This document shows positions 5,108 to 57,073 of a stretch of DNA of 64,000 nucleotides, in pieces (position 1 is the first letter of the stretch; each line of letters begins with the position of its first letter). A program made the translations under genes and the position numbers. Source of the DNA: Candidatus Omnitrophota bacterium (GTDB taxonomy: Bacteria > Omnitrophota > Gorgyraeia > Gygaellales > Profunditerraquicolaceae); contig JACQXK010000009.1 in NCBI GenBank assembly GCA_016208765.1, positions 20,819 through 84,818 on the forward strand, in the 5' to 3' direction. The notes beneath the pieces were generated by a model, which was not told the DNA's origin, did no database searches, and was given only the letters and a program-made list of their open reading frames with translations.

Positions 5108-5456
5108 AAAAAGCGGTTTCTAGCCAGTTTGATTTCATATTAAAAGTATGGTATACTTTTTACAGGAAAGAGGAAAAATTTAATCCCTGCGGTGCGCGTT
5201 GGAGATTTTGATAATTATTGAACCAACATTATTATCAAGGGAGCCCAGAATTCCGCGACGGTTTTCCGTACAGGAGAGGGCACCCACCTGAAACCAACCG
5301 GTTCAGATGTCAACCCAACGGCATTTCCGCGGGGATTTTTTATTGAGGTCACAACTTATGGAGGGAGCAACGCGAACGAACATAAGTTGCAGCGAAGCGT
5401 CCGCGAATTAATACCTCTTCCGCCATATTGGGGGAAGAGGTATATTCATACCCACT

Positions 5457-16883: not shown

Positions 16884-16955
16884 GCCCCTGTCGCCCAATG
16901 GATAGGGCACTGGCCTCCGAAGCCAGTTGTACAGGTTCGACTCCTGTCAGGGGCA
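16884..16955 (+). tRNA. tRNA-Arg (anticodon CCG)
   Basis: Acceptor GCCCCTG/CAGGGGC, anticodon stem CTGGC/GCCAG with loop CTCCGAA, T-arm GGTTCGACTCC; 72 nt, no encoded CCA. Confidence 0.75.
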
Positions 16956-20571: not shown

Positions 20572-21369
20572 GTGTTTCAGGTAAAGGCAAAAATAATTCA
20601 AAACAAACAGGTTAAAAAGAATTTCTTTCATTTGTTGGTGGATGCCCCGGAGATTGCCGGTAAAGCATTGCCCGGGCAATTTTTAAATATCAAGGTTAGC
20701 GATAATTTAGAGCCTTTGCTGCGCAGGCCGCTCGGAGTGCATCGTGTCAGTAAAAATAACATAGCAATGCTTTATGAAGTTGTCGGAAATGGAACGCAGA
20801 TTTTATCGCAAAGAAAAGCCGGGGAATATTTGGATATTATCGGCCCCTTGGGGAATGGTTTTGATTATCAGTCACCTGTCACCTGTCACCTGTCACCTGT
20901 GTTAGTTGCTGGTGGTATGGGGGTGGCTCCGTTATTATTTCTTGCGGATTTTTTAGCCCACAGTAAAAGTTTTAAAAGCTTAGTTTTTATCGGAGCCAAA
21001 ACAAAAAGCCAGTTGACTTGCGTGCAGGAATTTAGAGAATTAGGTTGCAAAGTAAAGATTGCCACCGACGACGGTTCAATGGGGTTTAAGGGCAGAGTTT
21101 CAGATCTTTTAACACATTTTCTACAGGCGACAGGAGACAGAAGACAGGCGACAATATTTAGCTGCGGCCCGCGGCCTATGCTTAAGGCAGTATCAGAAAT
21201 TTCCAGGAAGTTTAAGATTCCTGCGCAGATCTCTCTTGAAGAGCATATGAGTTGCGGCATAGGGGCTTGTATGGGGTGCGTGGTTCAAACCACAAGCGGC
21301 TACAAGAGAATTTGTAAAGAGGGCCCGGTTTTTCACGCAGATGAAATTGTCTGGGAGAGGGAGAAATGA
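20572..21369 (+). CDS. pyrK: dihydroorotate dehydrogenase (class 1B) electron-transfer subunit; contains two heptamer-repeat insertions
   Basis: FAD/NAD(P)-binding ferredoxin-reductase fold (RRPLGV, GGMGVAPL) and a C-terminal 2Fe-2S motif CGIGACMGC. It is adjacent to pyrD. Confidence 0.85.
   Translation: MFQVKAKIIQNKQVKKNFFHLLVDAPEIAGKALPGQFLNIKVSDNLEPLLRRPLGVHRVSKNNIAMLYEVVGNGTQILSQRKAGEYLDIIGPLGNGFDYQSPVTCHLSPVLVAGGMGVAPLLFLADFLAHSKSFKSLVFIGAKTKSQLTCVQEFRELGCKVKIATDDGSMGFKGRVSDLLTHFLQATGDRRQATIFSCGPRPMLKAVSEISRKFKIPAQISLEEHMSCGIGACMGCVVQTTSGYKRICKEGPVFHADEIVWEREK
20871..20901. repeat. in-frame heptamer tandem array (GTCACCT x4) inside pyrK
   Basis: gtcacctgtcacctgtcacctgtcacctgtg encodes SPVTCHLSPV; member of the CAGGCGA/TCGCCTG heptamer family. 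Confidence 0.8.
21124..21151. repeat. in-frame heptamer tandem array (CAGGCGA-CAGGAGA-CAGAAGA-CAGGCGA) inside pyrK, opposite orientation to the first
   Basis: caggcgacaggagacagaagacaggcga encodes QATGDRRQAT. Confidence 0.8.
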
Positions 21370-21726: not shown

Positions 21727-22719
21727 ATGATAACTAATTTAACTGTAAATATTGGGAAGTTAAAATTAGAAAACCCTGTTATGGTTTGCTCCGGTACCTT
21801 TGGGTATGCCGGGGAGTTTAAGGATTTCTTGCCGCTTAAGAAGTTAGGGGCGATAGTAACCAAGACAATTACTTTAAATCCGCGGCAGGGGAATTTTCCT
21901 CCACGCACCTGTGAAACTCCGGCAGGAATGTTGAATTCTATTGGTTTGGAGAACCCGGGGTTGGCAGGATTTCTTAATGAAAAGCTTCCAATTTTAAAGA
22001 AAATCGGGGTTCCTGTAATTGTAAGTGTTGCTTCAGAAGGCGGCATAGCTGAATTTGTTAAGGCCGTTTCTGAATTAAACGATTTTAAAGAAGTCGCAGC
22101 TATTGAATTAAATATATCCTGTCCGAATATAGAGTCGCCAGTCACCAGTCACCTGTCGCCAGTCACCGGTCGCCAGTCACCTGTCGCCTGTCGCCGGTTA
22201 CCTGTGTTTAAGAACCGGCGGTTGATCTCCCAAGATCCACAGGCAACCTATCAACTGGTAAAACAAGTGCGCAAGGCAACGAAGAAAACTTTGATCACCA
22301 AATTATCACCTAACGTAACTGATATTTCTGAAATTGCCCTTGCCGCCGAAAATGCAGGAAGTGATGCAGTCAGCTTGATCAATACGCTAATGGGCATGAG
22401 CATTGATACAAAAACCATGAAGCCAAAAGTTGCGGCTGTTATTGCAGGATTAAGCGGGCCGGCAATCAGGCCGGTTGCTGTAAGAATGGTCTGGGAAGTC
22501 TACCAGAAAATTAAACTTCCCATAATAGGCATGGGTGGTATAATTGATACTTCCAGCGCCTTGGAATTTTTTCTGGCAGGCTCTACTGCTATTGGTGTCG
22601 GGACAGCAAATTTTATTGATCCTGCAGCTACAATCAGCATATTGCAGGGCATTAAATCTTATTTACGCAAAAACAGAATAAATAATATCGCTAAATTAAT
22701 CGGGGGATTGAAGGTATGA
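21727..22719 (+). CDS. pyrD: dihydroorotate dehydrogenase catalytic subunit (class 1B); contains a 9-unit heptamer array
   Basis: TIM-barrel DHOD motifs (NPVMVCSGTFGY, NxxSCPN, GGIxxxxxAxEFxLAGSTAIGVGT); partner of pyrK. Confidence 0.9.
   Translation: MITNLTVNIGKLKLENPVMVCSGTFGYAGEFKDFLPLKKLGAIVTKTITLNPRQGNFPPRTCETPAGMLNSIGLENPGLAGFLNEKLPILKKIGVPVIVSVASEGGIAEFVKAVSELNDFKEVAAIELNISCPNIESPVTSHLSPVTGRQSPVACRRLPVFKNRRLISQDPQATYQLVKQVRKATKKTLITKLSPNVTDISEIALAAENAGSDAVSLINTLMGMSIDTKTMKPKVAAVIAGLSGPAIRPVAVRMVWEVYQKIKLPIIGMGGIIDTSSALEFFLAGSTAIGVGTANFIDPAATISILQGIKSYLRKNRINNIAKLIGGLKV
22137..22206. repeat. in-frame heptamer tandem array (9-10 units GTCRCCN) inside pyrD
   Basis: gtcaccagtcacctgtcgccagtcaccggtcgccagtcacctgtcgcctgtcgccggttacctgtg encodes SPVTSHLSPVTGRQSPVACRRLPV between conserved PyrD blocks. 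Confidence 0.85.
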
Positions 22720-30436: not shown

Positions 30437-30513
30437 GGGCGATTAGCTCAGCTGGTTAGAGCATCTGCTTTACACGCAGAGGGTCAGGGGTTCAAGTCCT
30501 CTATCGCCCACCA
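30437..30513 (+). tRNA. tRNA-Val (anticodon TAC), CCA encoded
   Basis: Acceptor GGGCGAT/ATCGCCC, D-arm GCTCAGCTGGTTAGAGC, anticodon loop TTTACAC, T-arm GGTTCAAGTCC, 3' CCA. Confidence 0.85.
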
Positions 30514-30607: not shown

Positions 30608-30683
30608 GGGGTCGTGGTGTAGCCTGGTCTAACACATCTCCCTGTCACGGAGAAGACCGCGGGTCCAAATCCCGTCGACCCCG
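30608..30683 (+). tRNA. tRNA-Asp (anticodon GTC)
   Basis: Acceptor GGGGTCG/CGACCCC, anticodon stem TCTCC/GGAGA with loop CTGTCAC, T-arm GGGTCCAAATCCC. Confidence 0.85.
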
Positions 30684-40862: not shown

Positions 40863-41066
40863 ATGGCCAAAGTTGTTATAAATAAAGAAAAGTGCAAGGG
40901 TTGTTTGTTATGTGTTAGTTTCTGTCCGAAAGGCTTATTGATTGTTGATACGGAGTTGAATACTAAAGGCATCAGGCCGGTAAAATTAAAAGAAGCAGCT
41001 GGATTTATTGGTTGTGCCCAGTGTGCGGTGATTTGCCCGGACTGCTGTATTGAAATTCATGAATAA
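40863..41066 (+). CDS. 4Fe-4S ferredoxin, delta subunit of 2-oxoacid:ferredoxin oxidoreductase
   Basis: Two CxxCxxCxxxCP motifs in 67 aa, immediately upstream of the alpha/beta/gamma subunits. Confidence 0.7.
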   Translation: MAKVVINKEKCKGCLLCVSFCPKGLLIVDTELNTKGIRPVKLKEAAGFIGCAQCAVICPDCCIEIHE

Positions 41067-42135
41067 GAAAATTTTGATGACAGGGAATGAAGCTTTTGCT
41101 AAAGGCGCTTTAGATGCAGGGTGCCGTTTTTATGCCGGCTATCCGATTACCCCGCAAAATGAGCTGCCTGCATATATGGCGTTAAATATGCCGCAGGTTG
41201 GGGGAGTGTTTATTCAGGCTGAGTCGGAGATCGCTGCAATTAATATGGTTTTTGGCGCTTCAGCCGCAGGAGCAAGGTCAATGACTTCTTCTTCAAGCCC
41301 GGGGATAAGCCTTAAGCAGGAAGGGATTTCTTATTTAGCAGGGGCAGAATTACCGTCGGTAATTATTAATGTCATGCGCGCAGGCCCTGGCTTAGGGAAT
41401 ATCTGGCCGTCGCAGTCTGATTATTTTCAGGCCACACGCAGCGCAGGGCACGGGGATAGCCACTGTATTGTCCTAGCGCCTTCTGCGGTGCAGGAGTCAT
41501 ATGATATTATGACGCTGGCGTTTGACCTGGCGGATAAATATCGTAATCCTGTAATGATTATGGGTGATGGTTTGTTGGGGCAGATGATGGAACCTGTTTT
41601 GGCAACTAACCAACGACAGGCGACAGGAGACAGGCGACAGGCGACTAAACCATGGGCAGTAACAGGATGTAAAGGAAGGAAACGCAACATTACCAAATCT
41701 TTTTACTTGCGGGAAGGCGATCTTGAGCAATTTAATATTTTATTACAGAAAAAATACCAAGAAATCCAGGAAAAAGAAGAGCGTTATGAAGGTTTATTTT
41801 TAGAAGATGCGGAATTAGTTTTGGTTGGGTACGGGACAATGTCTAGAATTGCCAAGTCGGCAATGTATAGATTGCGCGAAGAAAATTATAAGATAGGATT
41901 GATCCGGCCAATTACGCTTTGGCCTTTTCCAAAAAAGGTTTTTGAGAGTATGGGGAAAGCTATTTTCCTAGCCGTAGAAATGTCTTATGGGCAGATGGTT
42001 GAAGATGTTAAATTGGCGCTTAATTGCCGTTTTCCTGTGGAATTTCTTGGCCGTTCCGGCGGAGGGGTTGTATCTGAAGAAGATATAATTAATAAAGTGA
42101 AAGGCCTCATAAATAAAACAAACCGAGATGAATAA
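41050..42135 (+). CDS. 2-oxoacid:ferredoxin oxidoreductase alpha subunit; contains an in-frame heptamer array
   Basis: POR/KOR alpha-subunit N-terminal domain (GNEAFAKGALDAGCRFYAGYPITP) and transketolase-C-like region. Confidence 0.8.
   Translation: MKFMNKKILMTGNEAFAKGALDAGCRFYAGYPITPQNELPAYMALNMPQVGGVFIQAESEIAAINMVFGASAAGARSMTSSSSPGISLKQEGISYLAGAELPSVIINVMRAGPGLGNIWPSQSDYFQATRSAGHGDSHCIVLAPSAVQESYDIMTLAFDLADKYRNPVMIMGDGLLGQMMEPVLATNQRQATGDRRQATKPWAVTGCKGRKRNITKSFYLREGDLEQFNILLQKKYQEIQEKEERYEGLFLEDAELVLVGYGTMSRIAKSAMYRLREENYKIGLIRPITLWPFPKKVFESMGKAIFLAVEMSYGQMVEDVKLALNCRFPVEFLGRSGGGVVSEEDIINKVKGLINKTNRDE
41611..41644. repeat. in-frame heptamer tandem array inside the OFOR alpha gene
   Basis: caacgacaggcgacaggagacaggcgacaggcga encodes QRQATGDRRQAT. 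Confidence 0.8.
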
Positions 42136-52282: not shown

Positions 52283-52357
52283 TGCCCTGTCGTCTAATCG
52301 GTAGGACTTCAGATTCTGGATCTGACTATCATGGTTCGATTCCATGCGGGGCAGCCA
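52283..52357 (+). tRNA. tRNA-Gln (anticodon CTG), CCA encoded
   Basis: U1:A72 acceptor TGCCCTG/CGGGGCA, anticodon stem TCAGA/TCTGA with loop TTCTGGA, T-arm GGTTCGATTCC, 3' GCCA. Confidence 0.8.
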
Positions 52358-56990: not shown

Positions 56991-57073
56991 GCGAGGGTGG
57001 CGGAATGGCAGACGCGACAGTTTGAGGGGCTGTTGACCGCAAGGTTGTGAGGGTTCAACTCCCTCCCCTCGCA
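56991..57073 (+). tRNA. tRNA-Leu (anticodon GAG), long variable arm
   Basis: Acceptor GCGAGGG/CCCTCGC, anticodon stem ACAGT/GCTGT with loop TTGAGGG, long variable arm, T-arm GGGTTCAACTCCC; 83 nt. Confidence 0.75.

Follow-up and report, generated by a model that had tools for sequence, protein, structure and literature searches.

Background

The Rickettsia palindromic elements (RPE), which Ogata et al. reportedly described in 2000, are said to be selfish palindromes that lie in frame in housekeeping protein genes and are translated and tolerated in surface-exposed segments of the proteins. RPEs are about 100-150 bp long, have a conserved consensus without internal tandem periodicity, and form families dispersed in the genome. 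Repetitive extragenic palindromic (REP) elements are extragenic and non-periodic, and miniature inverted-repeat transposable elements (MITEs) have terminal inverted repeats and target-site duplications. The heptamer repeats of Xanthomonas and Nostoc occur in excess, with a preference for about four units, occasional inverted stem-loop pairs and several families per genome, and their arrays are intergenic and under-represented in coding regions (PMC4692102). The TAACTGA direct repeats of marine Beggiatoaceae are likewise dispersed, abundant and intergenic, in two to several copies (PMC4679880). A coding heptanucleotide tract lies at the 5' end of neuO of the Escherichia coli K1 phage CUS-3, where AAGACTC is repeated 3-53 times and the full-length protein is made only if the number of units is divisible by three (PMC13001214). 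We found no description in the literature of heptamer repeats in Omnitrophota or of in-frame heptamer arrays in housekeeping genes, and Lin & Kussell 2012 (PMC3315296) does not mention heptamers. Here we analyze a heptamer array in the gene for the alpha subunit of a 2-oxoacid:ferredoxin oxidoreductase (OFOR) of a Candidatus Omnitrophota bacterium, together with similar arrays in the same 64,000-nucleotide stretch of contig JACQXK010000009.1 (hereafter, the window) and in related DNA.

The heptamer array in the OFOR alpha gene

The array consists of about five tandem heptamers of the unit GGYGACN (CAACGAC, AGGCGAC, AGGAGAC, AGGCGAC and AGGCGAC), and therein Tandem Repeats Finder reported a repeat at 41614-41645 with a period of 7, 4.6 copies and 92% matches. 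It has the three or more head-to-tail copies of a 7-nt unit that define a heptanucleotide tandem-repeat array of the short tandemly repeated repetitive (STRR) type, or heptameric simple sequence repeat (SSR). An earlier note, made from the sequence alone, had recognized this array but placed its end at 41644, one base short. The features at this site are as follows.

41050-42135, + strand: host gene, OFOR alpha subunit, VorB-like (from Pfam, homologs and model)
41596-41646, + strand: variable linker cassette of 51 nt between the anchors GQMMEP and TKPW(A) (from the relatives L001, L205 and L206)
41611-41645, + strand: OFOR array, about five heptamers in sense orientation, translated as QRQATGDRRQAT (from sequence, Tandem Repeats Finder, pattern count and translation)

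The array begins at codon position 1 of the open reading frame (ORF) 41050-42135(+), and the peptide QRQATGDRRQAT makes up residues 188-199 (residue by residue, Q R Q A T G D R R Q A T). The ORF has the Pfam domains POR_N (residues 19-189) and PFOR_II (residues 254-346) and is followed by the genes for the beta (TPP_enzyme_C) and gamma (POR) subunits, in an operon of the order delta-alpha-beta-gamma. In the databases it is matched most closely by an identical 'VorB' protein of a Candidatus Omnitrophica metagenome-assembled genome (MAG), and an independent Logan assembly (L204) also codes for the identical protein. This organism is present in the sequencing runs SRR12113402 and SRR12113406.

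The array is situated where domain I ends and the inter-domain linker (residues 190-223, low model confidence) starts. In the AlphaFold model (34 homologs), residues 190-223 have pLDDT values below 50 and no secondary structure, and the solved OFOR alpha homologs (1yd7 and 8ys5) align to residues 6-188 and 231-352 only. Among the 34 homologs, which are 67-87% identical, the stretch from GQMMEP to (T)KPWALTGC is about 13-30 residues long and the anchors are invariant; in most of them the linker stretch resembles a translated short repeat, often with two inverted halves. Within the inter-domain linker of the alpha subunit, the OFOR array is a genuine insertion that keeps the frame and is translated. 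Note that the alpha subunit has a second hypervariable site (alignment columns 360-390, residues about 299-303 in the window), where the window has the shortest form, many homologs have RLAISDKRLAF, and P0079, P0061 and P0030 have larger inserts.

Dispersal of the unit and its translation

When the pattern (GGYGACN)x3 was searched with at most three mismatches, 19 matches were found in the window against 0.03 expected from shuffles. They fall into five arrays in four genes (pheS, pyrK twice, pyrD and OFOR alpha), in both orientations and over a span of 39 kb. Tandem Repeats Finder located six heptamer arrays in the window, all within ORFs and five in Pfam-matched genes. The arrays other than that of OFOR, and a pair of ORFs that overlap the latter, are as follows.

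2505-2541, + strand: pheS array (ACAGGCG ACCGGCG ...), QATGDRRPATGG, QATGDRRPATG (translation; GGYGACN family)
20871-20900, - strand: pyrK site A array, in the loop between GPLGNGFD and LVAGGMG, SPVTCHLSPV (GGYGACN family, antisense)
21123-21153, + strand: pyrK site C array, QATGDRRQAT (GGYGACN family, sense)
22133-22205, - strand: pyrD site E array, about 10 units, directly 3' of the NISCPN motif (GGYGACN family, antisense)
1537-1567, + strand: AGTTTAC x4.4 array, a different unit, directly after the start codon of ORF 1526-2035 (Tandem Repeats Finder)
41427-41730, - strand: two mechanical minus-strand ORFs, 41427-41696 and 41497-41730, not genes (overlap with the conserved plus-strand gene, no Pfam match)

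The recurrence of the unit and its peptide in the unrelated enzymes of pheS and pyrK, as the earlier note had proposed, was borne out by the translations and the Pfam matches of the hosts, and the spread of copies over both orientations agrees with its view of a dispersed element rather than a local duplication. The positions that it gave, near 2.5, 21, 22 and 41.6 kb, do carry arrays; however, the 22-kb copy lies in pyrD and not in pyrK, and pyrK holds two. It was also right in taking the minus-strand ORFs at 41427-41730 as artefacts: they overlap a strongly conserved plus-strand gene (E = 2e-236 to homologs), and they are open only because the heptamer array has no stops on either strand. 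Its suggestion that peptide signatures could serve as a quick proxy in searches did not hold up well, as such searches returned mostly spurious short ORFs over long intergenic arrays in unrelated bacteria; the best matches were domainless 'hypothetical proteins' of 41-121 aa from Yersinia, Cronobacter, Anabaena and others, and short in-frame copies scored too low to be listed.

The pheS array lies within an 18-residue insertion relative to the solved PheS structure 4p71. In pyrD, the loop after NISCPN, a motif that holds the catalytic cysteine of class 1B enzymes, has 30 residues in the window and 5 in 1ep1_A. At this place (22129-22221 of the window, residues 135-165) the largest of the arrays adds 25 residues, and the same loop has 5-34 residues in relatives. 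The site A array of pyrK reads (GTCACCT)x4 on the + strand, and that of site C precedes the xxCGP motif (IFSCGP in the window, IYACGP in most relatives). ORF 1526-2035 has no Pfam match, and the position of its AGTTTAC array is analogous to that of N-terminal arrays in the gene after pyrD in relatives.

The variant GGTGAC was found in none of the 12 sense units in the window and in 8 of the 13 antisense units (Fisher p = 0.0016). A tandem run of GGTGACA has a TGA in each of its frames; runs of GGCGACA or GGAGACA, and both variants in antisense, are free of stops. The avoidance in the sense orientation only therefore indicates that the arrays are under selection as translated sequence; selection would have removed the in-frame TGA expected from the sense GGTGAC variant. 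The possibility that the arrays are spliced out and not translated was ruled out by lengths that are multiples of three, the lack of stops and this avoidance of the TGA-forming variant. Long-range pairing between the two pyrK arrays was also considered and rejected: on the mRNA strand it contains C·A mismatches, and the sequence difference is explained by stop avoidance.

As the period of 7 is not divisible by 3, an arm of repeated heptamers is read in all three frames, and a stop-free unit is therefore tolerated in any phase of insertion. For the same reason of frame, lengths change in 21-nt (three-unit) steps, as other steps break the reading frame. The 7-nt period would thus give an identical peptide in all three frames, which may be a rationale for survival in gene-dense genomes, about 94% of which is open reading frame.

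A two-arm element at the OFOR site

Relatives carry longer forms at the same site. In L205 the site reads (GTCACCA)4-GTCAGGGGC-(AGGAGAC)4, and in L206 the arms are one of the (AGTTCAT) type and (ACGAACT)4, with the loop AGTAAAAAACT between them. L001, from an 85%-identical relative, has the right arm of the window copy and 21 nt of a decayed left arm. The distance from anchor to anchor is 72 nt in L205, L206 and L001, and 51 nt (72 minus 21) in the window, so that the left arm of the window copy is short by 21 nt, or three units, relative to the others.

Across families the two arms co-vary and complementarity is retained; some neighbouring arrays are not complementary (L135). The two-arm copies fold into stable hairpins (L185, -47.3 kcal/mol, z = -9.5; L140, -26.3 kcal/mol, z = -7.1), whereas the single-arm window copy has no structure beyond that of shuffles (z = +0.84). 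We suggest that a small palindromic element, with GGTGACN / NGTCACC arms of about four heptamers each, has survived in the window array only as its right arm; this is one part of the explanation discussed below, to which as a whole we attach moderate confidence. Palindrome instability may have removed the 21 nt (three units) of the left arm in the window copy. The earlier interpretation is incomplete rather than wrong, having missed this two-arm origin and the phylum-wide population of cassettes with many units.

Arrays in related DNA

A metagenome scan with the pyrD protein yielded 80 related loci (61-69% identity), which were assigned to taxa by similarity only. We surveyed 0.92 Mb, composed of the window, L001 and the 80 pyrD loci, with a strict detector and with codon-block shuffles as the control. 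The numbers of arrays were as follows.

Period 6: 1 array found, about 0.3 in shuffles
Period 7: 101 arrays found, 0 in shuffles
Period 8: 22 arrays found, 0 in shuffles
Periods 9-15: 0 arrays found, 0 in shuffles

The array lengths were narrow (25-35 nt, mode 31), and the units were highly diverse in the related loci, even at one locus. Orthologous sites with conserved flanks are four PyrK loops, the PyrD loop after NISCPN and the N-terminus of the next gene. With embedding in long open segments as a proxy for gene calls, 85% of the arrays in related DNA were embedded, against 13% of cyanobacterial heptamer arrays at equal G+C, so that the intergenic siting described for cyanobacterial and Xanthomonas arrays is not the pattern here; apparently intergenic arrays were longer, with about 6-9 copies.

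Lengths at these sites are quantised. The distance between anchors is 30 or 51 nt at site B, and 15/18 or 36/39 nt at site E, where two-arm forms reach about 75 nt; period-8 arrays add 24 nt at filled sites. Between L143 (KSHIAK) and L148 (KSHIAYRISHIAK) the difference is exactly 21 nt, or three units, and many lineages have 'empty' sites. These results indicate that Omnitrophota carry a phylum-wide population of micro-cassettes, with a period of 7 or, more rarely, 8, at a small number of permissive loops in housekeeping proteins.

The unit itself is widespread. A scan of 185,579 species genomes for (GGYGACN)x4 gave at least 120 loci; among the matches listed were Streptomyces, Nostocales, Planctomycetota, Verrucomicrobiota and others, with only one Omnitrophota contig, and the genome from which the window comes was absent from the 120 loci listed. 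Tandem GGYGACN runs thus occur in many phyla and the unit itself is not diagnostic. Some loci fetched with GGYGACN carry further heptamer arrays of unrelated units, at 12-29 per 100 kb: L052 (Candidatus Aquidulcis, Chloroflexota), L035 and L011 (Verrucomicrobiota), and L059 and L038 (Acidobacteriota). Multi-family arrays are therefore widespread beyond cyanobacteria and Omnitrophota.

A second type of in-frame insertion in the related DNA is a GC-rich hairpin, which translates as LPAGRQAG, SPRLRG..SFSEGG or LSEVEG. Such hairpins were found at L122 5946-6035, L126 10403-10459, L128, L170 and L190 (pyrD site E) and at L211 about 560-610, nested within heptamer arrays or present in one and absent from the other of strains that are about 99% identical. 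Heptamer arrays seem to be preferred landing sites for them.

Many metagenome or MAG contigs start or end inside heptamer arrays (L170 8-42, L134 22-46, L197 27-54, L011 1-31, L039 7-33, L049 3-29 and L007 6-32), which points to breaks in the assemblies at these places through population heterogeneity or confusion of repeats.

Families and exchange of cassettes

The arrays form sequence families. Pairs of arrays with a common unit (distance of at most 1) make up 17.6% of pairs within a locus and 3.5% of pairs between loci (p = 3e-7). L165 has an identical 30-mer, (ACGAACG)4AC, at two sites, and L158 has it at a third; in L165 this third site carries an inverted variant of the unit. Furthermore, an irregular two-arm element of about 70 nt with its loop can be aligned without gaps between the OFOR linker (L206 and L211) and the PyrD loop (L150, L139, L144, L140 and L125).

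Cassettes are polymorphic at a site, and their type is decoupled from the history of the host gene. In L210 and L211, the 240-nt flanks are 100% and 98.3% identical and the cassettes, of 81 and 72 nt, are unrelated; in L208 and L209, the flanks are only 74% identical and the 45-nt cassette is the same but for 1 nt. Among protein pairs with flank identity of at least 95%, the cassette type differs in 15 of 33, and single cassette types span flank identities as low as 80%. The same decoupling is seen for L175/L183 and L122/L126 in pyrK and pyrD. One slowly drifting, vertically inherited array per site was rejected as the sole explanation, since flanks that are 98-100% identical carry unrelated cassettes. 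L210 and L211 differ in two further places: near the C-terminus of DXS, where one of them has 84 nt (4 x 21 nt) inserted in frame (L210 about 166-249), and in the ferredoxin subunit, where a GC-rich hairpin of 48 nt is inserted.

Origin of the arrays and alternative explanations

On the reading that we consider moderately probable, the array of the OFOR gene goes back to a small dispersed element with heptamer-periodic arms. It would be a degraded but translated copy, at a permissive linker where such elements recurrently land or are replaced. No function is indicated for the array, and it is most likely selfish or neutral passenger DNA. Two processes may act jointly, namely the copying and replacement of whole cassettes within and between genomes, and in-place expansion and contraction in three-unit steps. 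By the former, sequence families would be dispersed over unrelated genes of one genome, and wholesale replacement would occur between near-identical strains; copies may have spread by some transposition, or by template switching or ectopic repair between arrays. More tentatively, and as a proposal that we hold to be possible rather than probable, Omnitrophota may harbour an undescribed class of 'frame-agnostic' selfish cassettes of 30-75 nt with arms of 7- or 8-nt repeats, which home to, nest in or replace one another at a few permissive loops of essential enzymes and move within and between genomes by a route other than classical transposition or simple slippage. A stop-free peptide that is the same in all frames would allow such cassettes to spread into the coding DNA of gene-dense genomes, and the outcome would be cassette polymorphism among strains whose housekeeping genes are otherwise identical.

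Several points weigh against an element that moves. Units are unrelated in 82% of the array pairs from the same genome, and the +21-nt steps, with about 1.4 units pre-existing, look like local expansion; both fit slippage in situ better than transposition. When the flanks at orthologous sites were inspected by eye, neither target-site duplications nor a conserved motif nor any terminal inverted repeats other than the arms were seen, and the elements were linked to no candidate transposase. Each of the five GGYGACN copies in the window has a single arm and must have lost the other independently, unless single arms themselves spread. The exchange of cassettes between close strains may reflect ordinary homologous recombination among old alleles and not mobility. 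In addition, the survey is biased, as most of its arrays come from the pyrK-pyrD-pyrF neighbourhood through which the loci were fetched.

Part of this evidence would suit simple-sequence repeats that arise in place, by heptamer-biased slippage from local seeds, with selection for frame passing changes of three units and nothing moving; we regard this as unlikely. A filled site equals an empty site plus exactly 21 nt (24 for period 8), as the three-unit difference between L143 and L148 illustrates, and the great diversity of units even at one locus and the longer, seemingly intergenic arrays are also in its favour. In other bacteria, an excess of heptamers with a preference for about four units has been described along with a hypothesis of polymerase slippage (PMC4692102), and loci from other phyla with one heptamer array hold nearby arrays of other units. 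Against local slippage stand one unit in five arrays of four unrelated genes in the window, the identical 30-mers in L165 and L158, the irregular element with a loop common to the OFOR and pyrD genes, and the cassette shared between L208 and L209. From generic slippage in coding DNA one would expect a preference for periods 6 and 9, both of which are nearly absent, and a single step of three units from 1.4 copies is unexpected for ordinary slippage. A selected function, for example as translation-pausing mRNA hairpins at domain boundaries, arrays bound by a nucleic-acid-binding protein or flexible linkers of a set length, appears improbable. Such a function would agree with the phylum-wide conservation of position and length but not sequence, with the sites at domain junctions or loops, with the very stable hairpins of the two-arm copies and with the L208/L209 cassette being more conserved than its flanks. 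The co-variation of the arms, which keeps complementarity across families, also agrees with it, but copying of one arm from the other would lead to it just as well. The single-armed, unstructured window copy, the 'empty' sites of many lineages, the interchange of unrelated cassettes in strains about 99% identical, the occurrence of both orientations with some adjacent arrays non-complementary, and the absence of an Rfam family match all argue against it.

We find it very hard to reconcile the arrays with a phase-variable contingency locus in which slippage by single units toggles the gene. The precedent is neuO of E. coli K1, whose coding heptanucleotide tract is read through only at a frame-keeping copy number (PMC13001214). 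The hosts here, pheS, pyrD, pyrK and OFOR, are single-copy housekeeping genes, and switching them off would harm or kill the cell. Their tracts are imperfect and short, with 4-5 units where neuO has 3-53; every copy seen is in frame, with length classes 21 nt apart and never 7; and redundant contigs from other samples (for example, L134/L135 and L164/L167/L168) have identical arrays. Finally, the frequency with which metagenome contigs start or end within arrays shows that the repeats disturb assembly, but an artefact of assembly or sequencing is hardly credible for the arrays themselves: an identical protein was obtained from an independent assembly, an orthologous array is present in a JGI contig of the 85%-identical relative, and the arrays are always in frame at conserved loops in NCBI, JGI, ENA and Logan data.

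Other features of the window

Rfam covariance models matched only tRNAs and a 6S RNA in the window, and none at any array. The 6S RNA lies at 5181-5339 on the + strand, and the five tRNA genes, also on the + strand, at 16884-16955, 30437-30510, 30608-30683, 52283-52354 and 56991-57073. The GC skew is strongly positive (0.1-0.24) as far as about 44 kb, is lower from there to 60 kb and has slightly negative values beyond; the + strand carries nearly all genes as far as 44.7 kb.

Comparison with known systems

Non-triplet tandem repeats, which are normally excluded from bacterial genes, are here tolerated, translated and exchanged in essential enzymes across an uncultivated phylum. If the cassettes behave as proposed, there would be a mutational or mobile-DNA mechanism with a built-in 7-nt step, and indifference to the reading frame would be a possible rationale for the 7-nt period; this may also bear on the origin of the heptamer repeats of cyanobacteria, Xanthomonas and Beggiatoaceae. 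In practice, metagenome assemblies break at the arrays, antisense ORFs and 'hypothetical proteins' are spuriously called over them, and marker proteins that contain them look more divergent than they are; the arrays could also help to tell strains apart on a fine scale.

With the cyanobacterial STRR sequences (Calothrix/Nostoc) and the GGGNATC-type SSRs of Xanthomonas and Nostoc, the Omnitrophota arrays share a 7-nt unit, dispersal in several families, a preferred size of about four units and inverted pairs that can form stem-loops; in our own scan, cyanobacterial seeded loci had 25 further heptamer arrays per 100 kb. Unlike those repeats, they lie in genes and in another host phylum, and they show 21-nt quantisation, fixed sites in protein loops and swapping of cassettes, which are undescribed for STRR and GGGNATC-type SSRs. 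The G-quadruplex explanation proposed for GGGNATC arrays was rejected here, as most units have no G-runs. The TAACTGA repeat of Beggiatoaceae is a single unit for which post-transcriptional regulation has been proposed (PMC4679880), in contrast to the diverse in-gene units of Omnitrophota. The tract of neuO is likewise a translated heptanucleotide tandem repeat in a coding region, but it serves as a single-unit phase switch in a single accessory gene; the arrays described here are short, stable and in frame in internal loops of essential genes, and in the contigs compared they show neither single-unit variation in copy number nor an accessory, surface or virulence host gene. Like REP elements, their bacterial interspersed mosaic elements (BIME) and MITEs, the cassettes are short, dispersed, hairpin-forming repeats that were probably moved in trans; unlike MITEs, they had no terminal inverted repeat with target-site duplication at the orthologous flanks inspected by eye.

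The likeness to the RPEs extends to the position in frame in protein genes and to translation, both of which were found here. As to the palindrome, the window copy has one arm (z = +0.84), and orthologous or related copies have two (z = -7 to -9.5). The Omnitrophota elements differ from RPEs in their size of 30-75 nt, their arms of 7- or 8-nt repeats, their many unrelated units and a consensus that exists only at the level of the family. As in-frame selfish palindromes, the RPEs would nevertheless be the closest functional analogue of the Omnitrophota cassettes.

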